A stretch of 62,962 bases of DNA from an uncultured bacterium. Lineage in GTDB: Bacteria > Patescibacteriota > Minisyncoccia > Phycocordibacterales > Phycocordibacteraceae. Made by a program: the position numbers and the translations under genes. Shown in pieces: positions 18,583 through 59,957 of the stretch (positions within the stretch are counted from its first letter, which is position 1; the number at the start of each line of letters is the position of its first letter). The notes beneath the pieces are model-generated. The model was not told where the DNA came from, ran no database searches, and saw only the letters and a list, made by a program, of their open reading frames with translations. The stretch is from assembly GCA_903994795.1 (NCBI GenBank), contig CAJEYI010000001.1, positions 1 to 62,962 on the forward strand. Direction: 5' to 3'.

Positions 18583-20955
18583 ATTCGATTTTTGAATAAG
18601 CACGTTCGTACCGAGCCCCGTGATGTCTACAGGGAGCATAAGTGGAGTCTCTGTGCGACTTGGAATGCTTGAGACAGGTAAGACTTTGAGTCCAGATTTC
18701 ATAGTCGCAGTAGTCGGGATATTTGAGTACTCAGCACTAATGCTTTGTGTACCTTGCGAGTTGGTCGACCCGATATCTAGGAAGGTTAATCCGGGTTCGT
18801 ATCCTTGTAGAGAAATTGTGTATGGTTGTCCCGTTGGAAGGTACACCTGCTTCTCGTCACCATGTACTTGCACAGAGCTTCCTGGAATCGATTCTTTTTT
18901 GTAATACACGTCAGTAGTTCCAGGCACTGGGAATATGCCACTCTGATTTCCACTCGCATCAGTCGCAATAATATTTGCAGATGCACCTACTGTCGCGGTC
19001 ATCATCAGTGGTAGTGATGAAGAAGGAAGGCTTGTGCTTATGAACGGACTCAGGACTGGTTTGTGTTCGAGCATATCTTGTAGTACAAGTTGAATTGGAA
19101 TCGCTGACGTAATATTTCCATGACCAATTTGTCCAAGTCGCGCGGATGCAAAGGCTTGCGCATTGAAATAATATTTTTCAGACGAGCTAGCGGTTACGCT
19201 TCTCGTAAGGACAGTATCGTCTCCATCAAAAGAATTTATTACAGCATGACTTGCCACATATGTGCTGCTACAGAATTTAGAGAATAGTGGAGGAAGTATA
19301 CATTTTGCATTTTTAATAATCGAAGCAGAATACGAATACTGGATTGGCGTCGGATTACCCCAGCCCGCAATGGTCGAGATAAGAATAGTTGGTGGTGGTT
19401 GCCATGAGTCGAGTAGTGCGTGTGTTGCATTTTCTTTGACGAGTAATTGTCCAGATAAAGGGATGGGTACACGCAAGTCGAATGAGGAAAAATTTCTTGT
19501 AATATTTGCAGAGTCAGTCACGAAGCGTACAAAGTCGGCGAATGACTTTGTTGCGCTCCCATACGTGTTTGTAAAAATATTTGTTGTTGCGGTTCCTGGA
19601 AACAATACTGGAAAGTTGCTTTCAAAAAAGTATGAACTTGATGGAAGTAGTCCATACATACCTGGAAGTGTTTTGGAAACTTCGCGAACTGTTCCTCCGT
19701 ACATAATGATTCCACCAGCGGCATCTGTCTGCCCGTCTCCATTTAGGAGAGCGCCAATACTTAATGGTGTGCCTAGTTGAGGGCTTGCGATTAGTGCAAT
19801 GCGGTCGATTAAATTTAGCCTACGTTCTTTTTGTAATTCTATGGCGAGTGCTTTCGCAAGAAGTCCTCCATTTGAATGGGCAATGATTGTGACTTGTCCT
19901 GATGGAGAAGTTGAGGCAAGATTTTGAATAACGTCTTGCAAAAAGACACGTGATATTTTCCCTGTAGGATTTCCGACAAGTGTACCGTTTTGGATAATGT
20001 CCTGAACATCGTATCTCCAGTCGTACGGATATGCTTGCCATCTTGAAATTATTTTCTTCGACACAAGCCCGTCCATGAATTTCTCGAACGGCCCGTAGAC
20101 GTCACCGAGTTTCTGAAGTCCATACTTGTAGTCAACCAAGTCTCTTGTGTAGATTAGTTTTTGACTTGTGCCGTTGGCATTAAGTACTAGGTTTAGTAAG
20201 CTCAGTGCACCCGAAGGTTCCCAGACGTTATTTTCTATTCCGAACGCATTTCTCATATAGAGGCGACTACCTTCGATGCCAGGCAGGAAGAGCACATTCG
20301 ATGTTCGCACTGGAACGGAATTTGTCAGCACATTGAATCGAACTCCTCCGAACGCTGTCGGTAAGTATGGGAATGGGTCAGGCGCATCAAGTGGGAACGT
20401 GAAGTAGCTCCACATTTGCTCCAGCGTGTATGGAGGTGCGCAATCAATTTCCCAATTGGGATTGTTTGGGCACGATGCGTGTGGATCGATATACATACTG
20501 TCAGGAATCGCGACGACAAAGAAGTACGAATCTGCCTTTGGAAATGTCGCCAGCACTTGTCCTGAAACAGTTCTCGAAACTTCCCATGATTGAACAAGGT
20601 GGGCCGTGGTCGAGAATGGAGAACCTTCCCAAAGCGAAATAAAAATACGAGACTCTTTTATTGTCTGATCAAACGCACTCGCGTTATCTTTTGAGGAAAG
20701 GTTCGGGTTCGGCCAGGTTGGAATATTGCTAAATTCATACGTAATGGGCACAAGGTCTTCTGTCGGTATGGTGATATTGCTGGTACTGGAAGCTGCAATG
20801 CTGATGCCTGATATCTTAAGACTAAGCTTGAGTTGTTGAATACTTTCAAACGTAGGCGGTGTATATGGTGGAGCTACTAAGTCCGCATGAACAAGGCCTG
20901 GTGAATAAAATAAGCTTATAAATAGGAAAACAATCGTGTTGGGTATCTTTTGCAT
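18577..20955 (-). CDS. secreted LCAT/PGAP1-like alpha/beta-hydrolase (lipase/acyltransferase), 792 aa
   Basis: Signal peptide, the YPYDWRYD motif, and the nucleophile elbow IIAHSNGG. Confidence 0.65.
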   Translation of the reverse strand: MQKIPNTIVFLFISLFYSPGLVHADLVAPPYTPPTFESIQQLKLSLKISGISIAASSTSNITIPTEDLVPITYEFSNIPTWPNPNLSSKDNASAFDQTIKESRIFISLWEGSPFSTTAHLVQSWEVSRTVSGQVLATFPKADSYFFVVAIPDSMYIDPHASCPNNPNWEIDCAPPYTLEQMWSYFTFPLDAPDPFPYLPTAFGGVRFNVLTNSVPVRTSNVLFLPGIEGSRLYMRNAFGIENNVWEPSGALSLLNLVLNANGTSQKLIYTRDLVDYKYGLQKLGDVYGPFEKFMDGLVSKKIISRWQAYPYDWRYDVQDIIQNGTLVGNPTGKISRVFLQDVIQNLASTSPSGQVTIIAHSNGGLLAKALAIELQKERRLNLIDRIALIASPQLGTPLSIGALLNGDGQTDAAGGIIMYGGTVREVSKTLPGMYGLLPSSSYFFESNFPVLFPGTATTNIFTNTYGSATKSFADFVRFVTDSANITRNFSSFDLRVPIPLSGQLLVKENATHALLDSWQPPPTILISTIAGWGNPTPIQYSYSASIIKNAKCILPPLFSKFCSSTYVASHAVINSFDGDDTVLTRSVTASSSEKYYFNAQAFASARLGQIGHGNITSAIPIQLVLQDMLEHKPVLSPFISTSLPSSSLPLMMTATVGASANIIATDASGNQSGIFPVPGTTDVYYKKESIPGSSVQVHGDEKQVYLPTGQPYTISLQGYEPGLTFLDIGSTNSQGTQSISAEYSNIPTTATMKSGLKVLPVSSIPSRTETPLMLPVDITGLGTNVLIQKSNR

Positions 20956-31912: not shown

Positions 31913-32755
31913 ATGAAAACATACAAACCAACCTCAAAAAGCCGACGACAGATGACAACCGTGACATATCGCGGTGTACTTTCTGGCGACAAGCCACACA
32001 AGGCTCTCCTCAGTACTAAGAAGAATCGTGCAGGACGAAACAATCAGGGTCGCATCACTACTCGTCACCAGGGTGGAGGTCACAAGAAGCGACTTCGCGA
32101 TGTAGATTTCGCATACAACAAGAAGAACATCCCTGCAAAGATCGAGACTATCGAATATGATCCATACCGAACAGCATTCATCGCTCTAGCGCTTTATGCA
32201 GATGGAGAGCGTCGATACGTAACAGCTATCAAGGATATGAAAGTTGGAGATACATTCATCGTTGGAGAAGATGCTCCTGTAAAGCCAGGAAATCGTATGC
32301 CTCTCGGCAAGATTCCTTCTGGAACATTTATCTACAATATCGAGCTTAAGCTCGGAGCAGGAGCTCGCCTAGCGCGCTCTGCTGGTAACTACGCAGAAGT
32401 TGTGGCTCATGACTCAGGATACGCCCAGATCAAGCTTCCTTCTTCTGAAATTCGTAAGGTGTCTGATCTTTGCTACGCATCTATCGGTGCAGTAAGTAAC
32501 GAAGAACAGCGACTTGTGAACTATGGAAAGGCTGGAAAGTCACGATGGATGGGTATTCGCCCTACAGTACGTGGTACAGCAATGAACCCTGTTGATCACC
32601 CACACGGAGGTGGTGAAGGACGTCAGGGACGTGGTCTACGACGCGCAAAGAGCATGTGGGGCAAGCCTACAGGAAAGGGTCAGAAGACTCGAACTCCAAA
32701 GAAGTACTCGAATTCATTTATCGTTTCAAGACGAAAGGTTGGGAAGAAGCGGTAG
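31913..32755 (+). CDS. rplB: 50S ribosomal protein L2
   Basis: Motifs RHQGGGHKK and NPVDHPHGGGEG. Confidence 0.97.
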   Translation: MKTYKPTSKSRRQMTTVTYRGVLSGDKPHKALLSTKKNRAGRNNQGRITTRHQGGGHKKRLRDVDFAYNKKNIPAKIETIEYDPYRTAFIALALYADGERRYVTAIKDMKVGDTFIVGEDAPVKPGNRMPLGKIPSGTFIYNIELKLGAGARLARSAGNYAEVVAHDSGYAQIKLPSSEIRKVSDLCYASIGAVSNEEQRLVNYGKAGKSRWMGIRPTVRGTAMNPVDHPHGGGEGRQGRGLRRAKSMWGKPTGKGQKTRTPKKYSNSFIVSRRKVGKKR

Positions 32756-32781
32756 TAGGCCTCTGGTAAAAAGAAGTTCGC

Positions 32782-32838
32782 AAAAGAATACGAAAAATGG
32801 CCCTCTAAATTCTGACGGGCCATTTTTCGTATTCTTTT
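32782..32838 (+). repeat. conserved-loop hairpin, copy 1 (22-bp stem, loop TCTAAATTCTGAC)
   Basis: Perfect inverted repeat AAAAGAATACGAAAAATGGCCC/GGGCCATTTTTCGTATTCTTTT, 26 nt after the rplB stop. Confidence 0.85.
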
Positions 32839-32949
32839 TGCCGTACCGAAAAGTTATCCACAGGCTTTATTTTCTCACTATTTTATTTTCATATTTATTT
32901 CAGCTCGCTATGCTACATTCTTGCCATACCAATTTAACGAAATACGAAT

Positions 32950-33255
32950 ATGGCACGAAAAAACCAAAGCACTCATACAACAGAAGTATTCATTAATAAC
33001 AATCATGCAGGCTACTCAGAACACGAGCATCTTTTGGAGCATGTTCATTTCCTAGAAGAACGAACTACCGAACTAGAAGAGAAAGTAGACTTCTTTCAGA
33101 CGATTTTCCAGGATTTACTAGATGATGAAGACGACGAGGATGAGGATACAGAAGATGAGGTAGGAGAAGATGAATACGAAGATGAAGAAGACCTCTTCGA
33201 AAATGGCCTGTGTGGCCATTCGTGTTGCTGTGTGTGGAGTCGTGTGGTGAGTTAG
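32950..33255 (+). CDS. hypothetical acidic protein with a Cys-rich C-terminus
   Basis: DDEDDEDEDTEDE run and a CGHSCCCVW tail. Inserted between rplB and rpsS. Confidence 0.4.
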   Translation: MARKNQSTHTTEVFINNNHAGYSEHEHLLEHVHFLEERTTELEEKVDFFQTIFQDLLDDEDDEDEDTEDEVGEDEYEDEEDLFENGLCGHSCCCVWSRVVS

Positions 33256-33297
33256 GGGTGTTTATAACCAAAAAATCACCATGATAAACTTACTACT

Positions 33298-33780
33298 ATG
33301 ACGGCGGACACAGAGCTAATTATTACTGAACTCACAAAAGTATTTGATTCTAAAATCGATCAATTAGGTAGTGAAATCAATGGAAGGTTCGAGCTGATGG
33401 ACACAGCTTTTGCTGATTTAGCATCTGCGATGCAGTATGGATTTGAGAAGGTTTACGATAGATTCGACGAGGTCGATGAGAGATTCGAGAATGTTGAGGG
33501 TAGATTAGGTAGAATCGAAGGCAGATCGGATAACTTTGAGAGCAGAATGAATAGAATCGATGAAAGTATCGAGTATTTGAAAGTAGAGATGAGAGACGTA
33601 AAGACGAGAGTCATTCACCTGGAGTCCTCTATGGAAGAAGTGCAGGAAAGTCTTGCAAATCTTGAAAACGCTGAAGAAAAAGACGCAAAAGCTACTATTA
33701 ATCACGAAACACGTATACAGAAGCTCGAAAAGGTAAATAAAATCAAACCGAAACCAGTGGCGCACTTATTGAATATATGA
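33298..33780 (+). CDS. heptad-repeat coiled-coil protein
   Basis: Six consecutive heptads of the form (D/E)xR(F/L/M)xx(V/I). Resembles the 51204-51608 product. Confidence 0.55.
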   Translation: MTADTELIITELTKVFDSKIDQLGSEINGRFELMDTAFADLASAMQYGFEKVYDRFDEVDERFENVEGRLGRIEGRSDNFESRMNRIDESIEYLKVEMRDVKTRVIHLESSMEEVQESLANLENAEEKDAKATINHETRIQKLEKVNKIKPKPVAHLLNI

Positions 33781-33820
33781 GCAGGAGAGGGCACAAGAAC
33801 CCTCATAAAGCCGTCATAAT

Positions 33821-33870
33821 TTGACAGTCTGCCTCATTTCGTATAGATTTTATCTATCCCGCGTCGCGGG
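33821..33870 (+). promoter_or_regulatory. candidate promoter plus leader hairpin of rpsS
   Basis: TTGACA (33821-33826) with TAGATT/TATAGA as -10. CCCGCG-T-CGCGGG hairpin (33858-33870), then CTTTTACTTCTC and the ATG. Confidence 0.45.
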
Positions 33871-33882
33871 CTTTTACTTCTC

Positions 33883-34236
33883 ATGTCACGATCACTCAAG
33901 AAAGGACCCTACATCGACGTTAAGTTGATGAAAAAGGTAACAACAGCAGGAAAACCCTCAACTTCAGGGGTTATTAAGACATGGGCTCGTAGAAGCCAAA
34001 TTGCTCCGGAAATGGTTGGTTTCACCTTTGGAGTTCATAATGGTAAGTCACACGTTGACGTACTAGTGAGCGAAGATATGGTTGGTCACCGACTAGGTGA
34101 ATTCTCACCAACGAAGAAATTCGTTCGTCACGGAGGAAAGATGCAGAAAGATCTCGAGCAGAAGCGCCAGGCTTCTGAGATTGCAGCAGCTAAGGCTGCA
34201 AAGGCAGCACCTGCGGCTCCTGCAAAGAAGAAGTAG
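33883..34236 (+). CDS. rpsS: 30S ribosomal protein S19 (Ala/Lys-rich C-terminal extension)
   Basis: Motifs SRSLKKGPY and GHRLGEF. Confidence 0.95.
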
Positions 34237-43747: not shown

Positions 43748-43773
43748 AATGCTTTAAAGATATAGAAGGGTAA

Positions 43774-43828
43774 GTAAAAAGCCTGAACGATTTCTCTAAA
43801 TTCTGACGAAATCATTCAGGCTTTTTAC
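43774..43828 (+). repeat. conserved-loop hairpin, copy 2 (21-bp stem with one C.A mismatch, loop TCTAAATTCTGAC)
   Basis: GTAAAAAGCCTGAACGATTTC/GAAATCATTCAGGCTTTTTAC, 27 nt after the secY stop. Confidence 0.85.
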
Positions 43829-43850
43829 GTTGCCTCACAGTTTACTTTTA

Positions 43851-44411
43851 TTACGCTTCAAGCCAGTTTTTGTATGAGTTTGTAATCATTTGAGCGACCT
43901 CTACGAGGGGGTATTTTGAGGTATCGATAACTAAGTCGAAAGGTGTTAAATCAAGCGCGTCTACATTATAGAGATTCATGTAACGTTTCTGCTCGCTGGT
44001 TCGGCGGTCAATTATATTGTTGTAAACTGCGTCTACAGAATCTCCACTCTCACTTACACGACCAGATTCTTGAATTTGTTTGTAAATTCGTTCAGCTGCG
44101 ATATGTGGGTCTAGGGAAAGATAGACTTTAAAGGAGTTCGGCATCCAGTGATATGCCATCCGAGAGTCGATAAGTAAATCAGATTCGTTCGCCATGTCTT
44201 GCAATTTCTTGTCTACCGCATGATCTATTTCGTGCTCAAGCTCTGCTTGCTGATTAATTTCTGTAATTGATACGCCTCGTTCTGCCGCAATTGATCTAAA
44301 GAGGTCTCCTGATGAGAAATGTCGGTATTCAAGGGTGCTTGCTACTAATTTCCCTGTGGAAGACTTTCCGCTTCCGAGTGATCCGGCAATTGTAATGATT
44401 TTTGTTCTCAT
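43851..44411 (-). CDS. cytidylate kinase-like (archaeal-type Cmk / AAA_18) P-loop kinase
   Basis: The P-loop GSLGSGKSS and the overall pattern resemble the Cytidylate_kin2 family. Antisense to the operon. Confidence 0.65.
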   Translation of the reverse strand: MRTKIITIAGSLGSGKSSTGKLVASTLEYRHFSSGDLFRSIAAERGVSITEINQQAELEHEIDHAVDKKLQDMANESDLLIDSRMAYHWMPNSFKVYLSLDPHIAAERIYKQIQESGRVSESGDSVDAVYNNIIDRRTSEQKRYMNLYNVDALDLTPFDLVIDTSKYPLVEVAQMITNSYKNWLEA

Positions 44412-49816: not shown

Positions 49817-51217
49817 ATGTCACTACGTCTCACTTGCTACGGCGCTGCCGAAACTGTAACTGGTTCTAATTTCTTAGTGGAAGGTCCCAAAGGAAAGATT
49901 CTTATAGATTGTGGTATTGAGCAGGGAAGGGACTTTGTGGAGTCAGAAATGTATAAGCCGTTTGCGTATGATGTTCCTTCAATAGACGCACTCGTCATAA
50001 CGCATGCACACCTCGACCACATTGGTCGCGCACCGAAACTCATAAATGAAGGCTTTAAGGGTCGAGTGTTCACAACAGCTCCAACACGAGACCTCACCGA
50101 AATAATGCTTCGTGATACCGTGAAGATATTGGCGGAGACTGCTAGAGAGCACGGCCTCCCACTTCTCTATACAGATGACGACGTAACCAAGTTCCTTGAG
50201 AAGATTGAGGTCATTGCATATCACGAAGAAAAAGAAGTTGCTCCAGGGCTCTCAATCTTCTTGCGTCAGACCGGTCACATACTTGGTTCTGCAAGCGTGC
50301 GCATAAAAGATTTATCTGACGATACATCCCTCGCTCTCACTGGAGACATTGGAAATATGCCATCGCCATATCTTCCTGACTGGGAAGCGATCACTGATGC
50401 AGATGCGGTGCTTATGGAAAGTGTGTATGGAGACAGGGTAAATGCGGATAAGGAGGATCGTGTCGCGCTTTTGCGCGACACGATCAAGAAGTCCGTCGCT
50501 CGCGGCGGCGTCATTCTCATACCAGCATTCTCTATTGAGCGCACTCAGCTCATGCTCTACGAATTTTCAAAGTTAATGGAAGAAGGTGAGATTCCTCATG
50601 TGCCGGTGTATCTTGACTCACCACTCGCCATTAAAGCTACAGAAGTATATGAGAAGTGGGGGAGCGAATTCTTCAAGTCTGCTGCAGAAGAAGAGTTGCA
50701 CCGACGACATGATCTATTTAAATTCCCATTTCTCATGGAGACCCCTTCACGCCAGGATTCTGAGGAAATTGCAAAAGCACCTAATCCTAAAATCATTATG
50801 GCTGGCGCTGGCATGTCGCATGGTGGCCGTATCGGACATTGGGAGCAAAAATACCTTCCAGACCCAACGACCACACTTATCATTGTGGGCTATCAGGCTC
50901 CAGGAAGCCCTGGACGCTTGCTTCAGGATGGTGCGCCCCATGTACGTCTCGGAGGTGTAGATGTGCGTGTACGAGCCAAAATAGAGACTTTTGTGGGGTG
51001 GTCAGCACACGCAGACAGAGACGGATTACTTGATTTTGCAAAAGCGGCACTCCCAGAGTCAGGAGGACGCACGAAGAACTTCTTCGTGGCACTCGGCGAG
51101 CCGTCCTCGGCTCGCTTCCTCGCGCAGCGAATTCATGATTATCTAGGCACGAATGCCATAGTGCCCACACAGGGAGAAAGCTTTGAGATCACAAAAGATA
51201 AGATTAAGCGACTATAA
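49817..51217 (+). CDS. MBL-fold beta-CASP ribonuclease-like hydrolase
   Basis: ITHAHLDHIG, the beta-CASP pattern, and a C-terminal SAHAD. Confidence 0.8.
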   Translation: MSLRLTCYGAAETVTGSNFLVEGPKGKILIDCGIEQGRDFVESEMYKPFAYDVPSIDALVITHAHLDHIGRAPKLINEGFKGRVFTTAPTRDLTEIMLRDTVKILAETAREHGLPLLYTDDDVTKFLEKIEVIAYHEEKEVAPGLSIFLRQTGHILGSASVRIKDLSDDTSLALTGDIGNMPSPYLPDWEAITDADAVLMESVYGDRVNADKEDRVALLRDTIKKSVARGGVILIPAFSIERTQLMLYEFSKLMEEGEIPHVPVYLDSPLAIKATEVYEKWGSEFFKSAAEEELHRRHDLFKFPFLMETPSRQDSEEIAKAPNPKIIMAGAGMSHGGRIGHWEQKYLPDPTTTLIIVGYQAPGSPGRLLQDGAPHVRLGGVDVRVRAKIETFVGWSAHADRDGLLDFAKAALPESGGRTKNFFVALGEPSSARFLAQRIHDYLGTNAIVPTQGESFEITKDKIKRL

Positions 51218-51608
51218 ATCGTGATTCGAAGTGCTCTTCCAGTGTCATTAGGTCATCTTTGGTTGCATAGTTTTCTTCTATAATATCGAGCTTTTCTTCA
51301 ACGACATTGATTTTATTTTCAATAACGTCGACCTTGTTCTCAATTACGGTAACCTTTCGCTCTATAGCGTCAACTTTTTTCTCTACAGTATCAACCTTGT
51401 CCTCAAGTACGTCGAGTCTATCTTCGACAACTTGGAAGTTTGCAGTTACTTCTGCAAAGCCTCGCGCAGTTATGGCTGCGAGTTCGTCTATCTTTTCGTC
51501 AATTTTTTGATCTACCTGATCAAATCGTACGTTCATTTCCGTACTTAGTGCGCTGAGTTTGTTATCAATATTCCCAATTTGTTCGCTTAATGTTTCTAGT
51601 GTCATCAT
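51204..51608 (-). CDS. heptad-repeat coiled-coil protein
   Basis: Repeats LEDKVDT VEKKVDA IERKVTV IENKVDV IENKINV VEEKLDI. Resembles the 33298-33780 product. Confidence 0.55.
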   Translation of the reverse strand: MMTLETLSEQIGNIDNKLSALSTEMNVRFDQVDQKIDEKIDELAAITARGFAEVTANFQVVEDRLDVLEDKVDTVEKKVDAIERKVTVIENKVDVIENKINVVEEKLDIIEENYATKDDLMTLEEHFESRFIVA

Positions 51609-51743
51609 GTTGTTAGTAGTATCGTCTTAAATAAAAGTCGGGTCAAGCACTCGTGAAAGTATATAAATTTCATGCTGAAGAATACCTCAAGGAGTTCTAA
51701 AATATTTCTGAGTTTTGCTAGAAAGGAAGGGAAGCAGTGTTCA

Positions 51744-51810
51744 GGGCGAAAGCATAAAAGAAAAAATCCCGTCAGAATTTAGAGGGATTTTTTCTTTTAT
51801 GCTTTCGCCC
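51744..51810 (-). repeat. conserved-loop hairpin, copy 3 (27-bp perfect stem, loop reads TCTAAATTCTGAC on the minus strand)
   Basis: GGGCGAAAGCATAAAAGAAAAAATCCC/GGGATTTTTTCTTTTATGCTTTCGCCC, 14 nt after the rplT stop. Confidence 0.85.
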
Positions 51811-51824
51811 GTTCACTCGTTACT

Positions 51825-52175
51825 TTACGCTTCTACCTGCTTCGCAATTCTTGTGAAAATCTCTGGGTGCATCTGTGCGAATTCAGAAAGTACCTTTCGG
51901 TCGAGTTCCATTTCCTTTTTCTTCATGTTTGCAATGAATGTGCTGTATGACTTGAAACCATTCTCACGAATAGCAGCATTGAGACGTACGATCCAGAGGG
52001 ATCGGTAGTTGCTCTTATTATCTTTGCGGTGAGCAAAGGAGTTCTTTCCCGCGTGTACGAGGGACTCTTTCGCTGCTCGCTCTTTAGTTGAGCGACCATG
52101 ACGATATCCCTTCGCGCGCTTGAGAACGCTGCGACGTCGTTTTAGTGAGATGACTCCTCCTTTTACTCGTGACAT
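51825..52175 (-). CDS. rplT: 50S ribosomal protein L20
   Basis: MSRVKGG...RR pattern. Confidence 0.95.
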   Translation of the reverse strand: MSRVKGGVISLKRRRSVLKRAKGYRHGRSTKERAAKESLVHAGKNSFAHRKDNKSNYRSLWIVRLNAAIRENGFKSYSTFIANMKKKEMELDRKVLSEFAQMHPEIFTRIAKQVEA

Positions 52176-56116: not shown

Positions 56117-56170
56117 GCCCACCTCCACCAGATAAACAAAAACCACCTATCGGTGGCCATGTTTATATCT

Positions 56171-56592
56171 GGTGGAGGTGGGGGTAGTTGAAACCCCGTC
56201 CGAATCCGGCTTTGAGAGCGAGTCTACGACGCGTAGTTCATATTAGTGTTTCAGAATGAAGGTAAAAACAGGAACGAAACCCTTCACACCTACGCCCGTT
56301 TTTTAAGAGACTTATGTGGGCACATGAATCTTCCGATCCCATAGAGAATTCCGCCCAATCACCCAGCTATGAGAACCTGGAATGATGAACGTCGCTCAGC
56401 GAGGCGAGCCGAAGCTCAAGCCTGCTTACGCGAACGCAAAGTCGCTCGGAGTAAAATACCTCGAAACGATGCTCTTTGCGCTTGCAACTGTAGTGTTAGC
56501 AAGTATTTGTGCTTGTGGGATTTGAGTGTCCAGCAAGCTTGCACTGCGTCGCACGTCTCTCAAAGAGCAGACCGTCAAAACCGGTCACCCCC
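56171..56592 (-). ncRNA. ssrA: tmRNA (SsrA)
   Basis: 5' GGGGGUGACCGGUUUUGACGG and 3' GGAUUCGGACGGGGUUUCAACUACCCCCACCUCCACCA. The acceptor stem has a G3:U70 pair. Lies directly downstream of smpB. Confidence 0.9.
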
Positions 56593-59881: not shown

Positions 59882-59957
59882 ACGCGCGTAGCTCAATTGG
59901 TAGAGCACTGAGCTTATACCTCAGCGGTTGCAGGATCGTGCCCTGCCGCGCGTACCA
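59882..59957 (+). tRNA. tRNA with anticodon UAU (Ile, AUA-reading), CCA encoded
   Basis: Hand-folded cloverleaf: acceptor ACGCGCG/CGCGCGT, D arm GCTC-AATTGGTA-GAGC, anticodon arm CTGAG-CTTATAC-CTCAG, T arm GCAGG-ATCGTGC-CCTGC, discriminator A, CCA. Confidence 0.7.

Follow-up and report, generated by a model that had tools for sequence, protein, structure and literature searches.

A conserved-loop, terminator-like hairpin downstream of rplT and its dispersed relatives at gene 3' ends in a patescibacterial genus

Ultra-small genomes are generally regarded as poor in repeats, mobile DNA and known regulatory RNAs, and the described systems closest to a conserved hairpin at the end of a core operon come from several directions. 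The L17 downstream element is a conserved hairpin-type 3'-UTR motif of unknown function that lies directly after a ribosomal-protein gene, the ssoA of rolling-circle plasmids (mentioned here as a lead only) is a long hairpin whose stem varies and whose short conserved loop is read by a protein, and the attC hairpins of integrons carry AAC...GTT-type stem features together with a bulged base. REP/REPIN sequences are short extragenic palindromes at gene 3' ends that are species-specific, occur singly, in tandem or inverted, have been credited with roles in termination or mRNA stabilisation, and spread within their genome (PMC3116915, PMC3337134, PMC2817692, PMC3733652). Within the portion of the literature that our search reached, no paper was found that describes hairpins of this kind in Patescibacteria or in the candidate phyla radiation.

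The hairpin described here (copy 3; Table 1) lies in a window of 62,962 nucleotides, by which we mean the whole stretch of DNA that was analysed. The window belongs to G000, the genome under study, whose assembly comprises 902,262 bases in 66 contigs (96% completeness, 45.7% GC); other G numbers denote relatives, C numbers contigs, and L136 and L137 copies recovered from metagenomes. Read on the minus strand, copy 3 runs GGGCGAAAGCATAAAAGAAAAAATCCC - TCTAAATTCTGAC - GGGATTTTTTCTTTTATGCTTTCGCCC (5' arm - loop - 3' arm), and an inverted-repeat search returned two arms of 27 nt that are 100% complementary and separated by 13 nt, in agreement with the 27-bp perfect stem reported in an earlier note on this DNA; its further claim, that the loop and closing pairs equal those of copy 1, was likewise borne out (CCCTCTAAATTCTGACGGG is identical in both). 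As RNA, the 95-nt region is predicted to fold at -50.1 kcal/mol, as against -16.4 +/- 3.3 kcal/mol for 200 shuffled sequences (z = -10.1).

Table 1. Coordinates of the hairpins, their neighbouring genes and other features (positions refer to the window unless a contig is named)
Feature	Location	Strand	Details
Signature-loop hairpin, copy 3	51744..51810	-	5' arm 51810-51784, loop 51783-51771, 3' arm 51770-51744
Hairpin copy 1	32782-32838	+	22-bp perfect stem; 26 nt past rplB stop
Hairpin copy 2	43767-43835	+	28-nt arms, 86% complementary; 19 nt past secY stop
Hairpin copy 4	C9:25944-26006	-	25-bp perfect stem; after rplL
Metagenome copy L136			28-bp perfect stem; after rpmB
Metagenome copy L137			27-bp perfect stem; after rplL
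rplT (ribosomal protein L20)	51825..52175	-	last gene of infC-rpmI-rplT; PF00453, E = 5.6e-31
Promoter-like repeat (~57 nt)	51658..51724	-	between copy 3 and the promoter-like hexamers; also C4:8926-8982 and C9:4837-4888
Promoter-like TTGACC-17-GATACT	51618..51646	-	before the coiled-coil gene; consensus match only
Coiled-coil protein gene (134 aa)	51204..51608	-	start 135 nt past copy 3
beta-CASP / metallo-beta-lactamase RNase-type gene	49817-51217	+	convergent with the coiled-coil gene; 14-nt overlap of the 3' ends
rplB-rpsS region with a gap of ~1.1 kb	31913-34236		two small ORFs, of 101 aa and a 160-aa coiled-coil protein
Cytidylate-kinase-like gene	43851-44411	-	opposite strand, between secY and adk
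Zeta-toxin-domain P-loop gene	C9:25208-25915	-	PF06414, E = 3.9e-30; between the rplL hairpin and a helix-turn-helix-like gene
98-nt module, first copy	C3:4771-4926		29-bp perfect stem
98-nt module, second copy	C3:30900-31045		24-bp perfect stem
tmRNA	56170-56592	-	Rfam, 99.3 bits
tRNA	59882-59954	+	Rfam

The loop 13-mer TCTAAATTCTGAC has exactly four exact copies genome-wide, and all four of them form the loops of long hairpins (hereafter signature hairpins) situated 14-29 nt past the stop codons of rplB, secY, rplT and rplL, with the loop in sense orientation to the upstream gene (copy 2 also lies 15 nt past the stop of a convergent cytidylate-kinase-like gene). The four stems are unrelated and have only a C:G closing pair in common; downstream of the four copies no further hairpin was found. 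In an alignment of eight sequences (the four G000 copies, two from one relative and the two metagenome copies) 16 of the 18 stem pairs are changed on both sides, and none of 500 shuffles reaches any of five covariation measures, so that the hairpin family proposed beforehand, with one conserved loop on differing stems, holds. The covariance model built from this alignment finds only these four hairpins in the genome, scoring copy 3 at 71.2 bits (E = 2.5e-12). Among relatives' DNA that is roughly 80-95% alike, copies 1 and 2 are each spanned by an X2 contig (a different one in either case, with 0 gaps at copy 2), and an X1 contig connects opposite strands at 32782/32850, a fold-back at the copy 1 palindrome; none of the relatives' contig matches listed spans copy 3.

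As the stems look like the ordinary terminators of the genus, it might be supposed that these are merely ordinary terminators whose loops came to be alike by chance or through recent local duplication, a reading to which we give hardly any credence and which three counts refute. At a tolerance of 3 mismatches, the 17-mer CCTCTAAATTCTGACGG matches the window three times (mean 0.19 in 100 dinucleotide shuffles, of which 0/100 reach three); the loop is identical in the six G-type copies (the four of G000 together with L136 and L137) and nearly so in all 26 members of the family delineated below, on unrelated stems; and among the 99 perfect hairpins of the genome (stem of at least 12 bp, loop of 3-20 nt), 73 of which have loops of 3-5 nt, a 13-nt loop occurs only four times, three of these being signature hairpins.

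The resemblance to terminators is nonetheless close. In those ordinary hairpins that were displayed the 5' arm is rich in A, the top in GC and the 3' arm in T, and the signature hairpins share this stem anatomy; by length of stem they take the first, second and joint fourth places among the 99. Like intrinsic (Rho-independent, bidirectional) terminators, they are stable stem-loops placed just past an operon-final gene (copy 3 begins 14 nt past the rplT stop codon), in which a GC-rich stem top is followed by a T-run and an upstream A-tract pairs with that T-run; unlike them, they possess a 13-nt invariant loop in place of 3-5 variable nucleotides and a stem of 22-27 bp. A simple consensus scan for terminators does not call copy 3, because its loop, at 13 nt, exceeds 8 nt. 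The UUUUUU of copy 3 comes after a 4-bp GC top and is itself paired within the extended stem (i.e. the U-run lies inside the 3' arm). Copy 3 is the sole hairpin of the rplT 3' intergenic region; in other species rplT is followed by ordinary palindromes with loops of 3-6 nt (in G130 by an ordinary terminator with a 4-nt loop), and ordinary terminators also stand after rplB in G123 and G028. At another site, G141 has a terminator whose stem resembles that of copy 3.

We tentatively favour, with a confidence that stays a little below even, the reading that the signature hairpin is a palindromic element, dispersed and lineage-specific, with a REP-like lifestyle, which serves as an operon terminator and whose loop is a recognition tag. 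On this assumption, the signature hairpins of G000 would have replaced ordinary intrinsic terminators at gene 3' ends, and the transcribed copy 3 would form the 3' end of the infC-rpmI-rplT mRNA, where the GC-rich top and the UUUUUU, extended by A:U pairing to a 27-bp helix, would stop RNA polymerase and protect the 3' end, the downstream coiled-coil gene presumably starting from its own promoter. The 13-nt loop would be dispensable for termination and act as the identity tag of the family, to be read by a putative factor that either makes use of the hairpins or places copies of them at further 3' ends. In this reading, transcription, terminator activity, the loop-binding factor and the mode of spread are inferred.

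With regard to the surroundings of copy 3, the earlier note had placed a heptad-repeat coiled-coil gene downstream on the same strand. The open reading frame is present and matches generic coiled-coil families at sub-threshold level only, and the tie that had been implied between hairpins and coiled-coil genes fails, as only two of the four copies in the genome precede such a gene. Furthermore, homologs of the rplT-linked coiled-coil gene follow rplT in G051 and G130 without a signature hairpin; a search of 21 loci from other species and metagenomes found no coiled-coil homolog within ~1.5 kb of the element, and the two coiled-coil proteins of the window are weak paralogs at best (23% identity, with composition correction switched off). 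The link was rejected, and the adjacency of hairpins and coiled-coil genes is coincidental. Identical promoter hexamers precede the homologous coiled-coil gene in G051, the closest relative, and no hairpin was found there between rplT and this gene, hence copy 3 is either a gain in the present lineage or was lost in G051. The ~57-nt promoter-like repeat follows the pattern ...AAATATTTTAGAA...TTCTTCAGCA...TATACT, stands ahead of different genes and has a short match in G130.

The gene neighbourhoods also bear on the idea that the hairpins are attC-like recombination or cassette sites which brought in accessory genes (coiled-coil, zeta-toxin-domain and kinase-like ones). Every signature hairpin in G000 adjoins a non-core gene, and the clamped stems of other species (see below) contain AAC...GTT and a bulged base, reminiscent of attC; however, the rplB-rpsS gap is present in five of five relatives tested, the two that are readable there having ordinary terminators after rplB, and the coiled-coil gene after rplT does without the hairpin in G051 and G130. 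Moreover, the architecture is the inverse of that of attC, in which the ends (R''/R' boxes) are conserved and the centre is variable, whereas the signature hairpins conserve the centre, vary at the base and are dispersed after core genes, with no cassette arrays. We therefore regard this origin as very improbable.

We traced the family beyond G000 with a degenerate loop pattern, which catches the T-variant loops that an exact 13-mer search of 100 relatives misses. Matches were obtained in 11 of the 222 genomes of the genus, with hairpins verified in six (nine in G028, five in G135, four in G000, three in G041, two in G247 and one in G169); the 31 sites examined resolve into 26 members (inclusive of the 2 metagenome copies) and 5 chance matches without a hairpin. 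A 17-mer pattern was absent from 400 other genomes sampled from the order, and a 15-mer contig scan yielded no clear hairpin among the 119 matches listed (one, L121, is weak and partial). The loop consensus of the 26 members is TCT(A/G)AATTC(T/C)(T/G/C)AC, and all 26 are in sense orientation to the upstream gene. The upstream genes of the family include rplL (six genomes or contigs), ftsZ (two), smc (two), gyrA, ppa, rpsO and membrane-protein genes. The rplL site is the only one widely shared, the occupied sites being mostly non-orthologous between species.

In five other species the loop (TCTAAATTCYTAC) is carried by imperfect, 'clamped' hairpins that start 0-4 nt past the stop codon and have a conserved basal clamp, CTCCGCTCGC ... 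GCTCGCTCC, usually with a bulged C. As the clamped element usually precedes an ordinary GC-rich terminator and thus lies between the latter and the stop codon, it falls inside the 3' UTR. That the whole element spreads by duplication is directly evidenced in G028, in which three copies with identical stems follow a membrane-protein gene, smc and ppa. In G135 two copies stand in tandem, the second one being truncated on the 5' side; a tandem pair in G051 is inverted; and one element each of G135 (C16) and G041 (C15) contains a homologous 43-nt insert inside the loop, with its own small covarying hairpin. Among the clamped loci of G028, G135, G041, G247 and G169, the upstream gene ends in a Lys codon (AAR-TAR) in 9 of 11 distinct families (by eye), as compared to 80 of 633 long ORFs (12.6%) in G000.

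After rplL, 60 further 3' regions (one of them cut by a contig end) contained no TCTAAATTC loop, and most have ordinary terminators; by eye, the same basal clamp with other apical sequences occurs after rplL in G135 (C3), G025, G106, G219 and G232, and in flipped form in G139 and G225. A contig of G049 (C4) ends 8 nt past the rplL stop, inside TAATCCGC (the start of the clamp), which may be an assembly break at the element. In a tree of three proteins (23 of the 222 genomes, all rows retained), monophyly of the six pattern-bearing genomes is rejected (AU test, p = 1.4e-5), a result that matters less because G051 and G130 carry variant loops; G000, G051 and G130, all three with signature loops, group together in this tree. 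The simplest history is that of an old hairpin after rplL which was lost many times and spread in particular lineages to other 3' ends.

The variant loops of these two sister genomes differ from that of G000 and from each other. G051 has four hairpins of the form CAG-(C/T)CTAAGTG(C/G)TTTCG-CTG, with a 14-nt loop on unrelated stems (one of the four imperfect), and G130 has four of the form C(C/T)-TAAATGAC-GG, with an 8-nt loop on stems that are again unrelated (one copy being cut by a contig end). After rplL, the G051 hairpin has a 27-bp perfect stem and a 14-nt loop whose reverse complement, TCTAAGTGGTTTCG, equals the motif at 8 of 13 positions by our own count, and the G130 hairpin a 28-bp perfect stem with an 8-nt loop that reads TAAATGAC on the antisense strand. 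At rplL the loop is accordingly antisense in both genomes, so that its orientation is not fixed. Both genomes also have a copy between one and the same pair of convergent genes, of which one is thrS-like, and relative to this pair the two copies are oppositely oriented. We regard homology of the three genomes' loops to one another as tentative, and the loop of G025 was set aside, being single-copy. The loop is uniform inside each genome and differs between sister genomes, indels included, which favours master-copy turnover or copying from tip to tip over slow co-evolution locus by locus.

This pattern bears on a non-mobile alternative, in which the hairpin is a host cis-regulatory 3'-UTR structure whose loop binds one regulatory protein, thereby uniting housekeeping and ribosomal operons in a post-transcriptional regulon, new copies arising through duplication and selection. 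The near-invariance of the loop in 26 members on covarying stems speaks for such a regulon, as do the highly expressed core genes upstream (rplB, rplL, rplT, rpmB, rpsO, secY, ftsZ, smc, gyrA and ppa), the sense orientation throughout this loop family and the retention of the rplL site. Nevertheless, we consider it somewhat unlikely, since loops that differ by indels between the closest genomes and yet are identical within each would be hard to obtain by co-evolution at four loci, the occupied sites are mostly non-orthologous, most of the genus is without the loop (as exemplified by the 60 further rplL regions), and no binding protein was identified.

The length of the stems invites another RNA-based explanation, namely that the hairpin is the precursor of a small hairpin RNA. 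RNase III requires a double-stranded RNA of some two helical turns, and a stem of at least 22 bp could be its site, cleavage either releasing an apical trans-acting RNA (with the loop as seed) or triggering decay of the upstream mRNA. G000 encodes RNase III (PF14622, E = 3.3e-39), its signature perfect stems reach 22-27 bp as opposed to mostly 12-17 bp in other perfect hairpins, and the other very long perfect stems enclose structured inserts (one 5S rRNA-like by eye, and two 98-nt modules). Against this, no target was found: complements of the loop core in G000, and with them a partner RNA, were rejected as being at chance level, the longest having 11 nt (window 19271-19281, inside a 792-aa ORF). 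Moreover, bulges and internal loops interrupt the clamped hairpins of the other species. We hold this explanation to be improbable.

Returning to the dispersed, terminator-like element that we favour, its likeness to REP/REPIN sequences consists in the extragenic position at gene 3' ends and in the occurrence of tandem and inverted pairs. The differences are threefold: REPs conserve the stem and a GTAG/CGTC tag while the spacer varies, whereas signature hairpins conserve the loop, leave the stem free and have no shared tag; there are 1-9 signature copies per genome as compared to tens to hundreds of REPs; and the family is without an accompanying RAYT. The Y1 transposase domain (PF01797) is absent from five of the eight hairpin-bearing genomes (G028, G135, G041, G169 and G130) and was matched in G051, in G247 and once in G000, on a contig (C39) which, having a GC content of 62.7% against 45.7% for the genome, is probably a contaminant. 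The IS110 (DEDD) and TnpB families were not found in G000 at its 96% completeness, and a link to RAYT, IS110 or TnpB was rejected, given that no transposase gene consistently accompanies the hairpins. A general target-site duplication was likewise rejected as inconsistent, for a 5-nt direct repeat (TGAAC) flanks copy 3 only and the other five G-type copies are without one (by eye). Homology of stems between loci (copy 1 with L137, 18/22; copy 4 with L136) does not rise above the terminator-stem background (an unrelated ordinary terminator scores higher), and movement of whole hairpins within the type found in G000 is therefore unsupported. The favoured reading is further weakened by the antisense loops at rplL in G051 and G130, and by the clamped copies, in which the antisense strand folds better in 21 of 26 cases (mainly via tandem G.A in the clamp), a poor fit to a role of the sense-strand RNA.

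The L17 downstream element is alike in being a conserved hairpin directly downstream of ribosomal-protein genes, but the signature motif is multi-copy, follows different genes, has genome-specific loops and finds no Rfam match: in the hairpin region the best Rfam score is 29.9 bits against a threshold of 130, only generic (miRNA-precursor) models matching far below threshold, and over the whole window at gathering score only the tmRNA and one tRNA were returned. In contrast to ssoA, the signature copies are chromosomal, sit at gene ends and have no plasmid or Rep context. That related species carry loop versions of their own suggests a previously undescribed small family of spreading terminator-like elements.

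How the loop alone might travel is addressed by a further, rather unlikely proposal, according to which long perfect palindromes in this genus receive short modules (8-14-nt loops, the 43-nt insert, a 54-127-nt structured module) at their tips, which serve as landing pads; a mechanism that targets structure and has no recognisable transposase would copy the modules between palindromes, each genome having its own loop allele. The longest perfect inverted repeats in G000 nearly all enclose non-trivial inserts, and the proposal rests on two 98-nt modules that sit on long perfect stems, one of them at a signature-loop site. These modules are homologous, with covarying internal helices and unrelated outer stems, both stems ending TTAGGG/CCCTAA; one copy is located between divergent gene starts, and the other (the second in Table 1, for which Rfam gave no match) at the convergent thrS-like gene pair that is occupied by signature loops in G051 and G130. 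The module core is present in 12 of the 222 genus genomes at 15 places, with compensatory variants, and among the 12 places examined, 8 (in 6 genomes) are on a locus-specific perfect outer stem of at least 10 bp and 4 have no clear stem. If this proposal were true, the modules would constitute a new kind of miniature mobile DNA, the inverse of REPINs, with a conserved apex on free stems.

The significance of the locus thus lies in an identical loop carried by unrelated stems at the ends of core operons, and in the fact that the three sister genomes each have a loop of their own. Should a protein read the loop, the hairpins would amount to a hidden layer of 3'-end control over core genes; should the hairpins or their tips move, they would be miniature elements of a new type, and would provide a natural model of how a palindrome can change fast and yet remain perfect.

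Several further features of the assembly were observed. Apart from C39, contigs C40, C43, C59 and C64 (and also C5 and C26) of G000 are probably contaminants, the GC content of this set being 54-70% as compared to 45.7% for the genome. A conserved helix-turn-helix-like gene stands directly after rplL in G028 and L137. By eye, rpsE directly adjoins rplL15, without L30 between them, which, like the genome size and the sizes of the genomes in the order, points to a bacterium of the candidate-phyla-radiation type. The rplB-rpsS gap measures 1.4-2.7 kb in all five relatives tested, and the S10 operon is therefore split across the genus.
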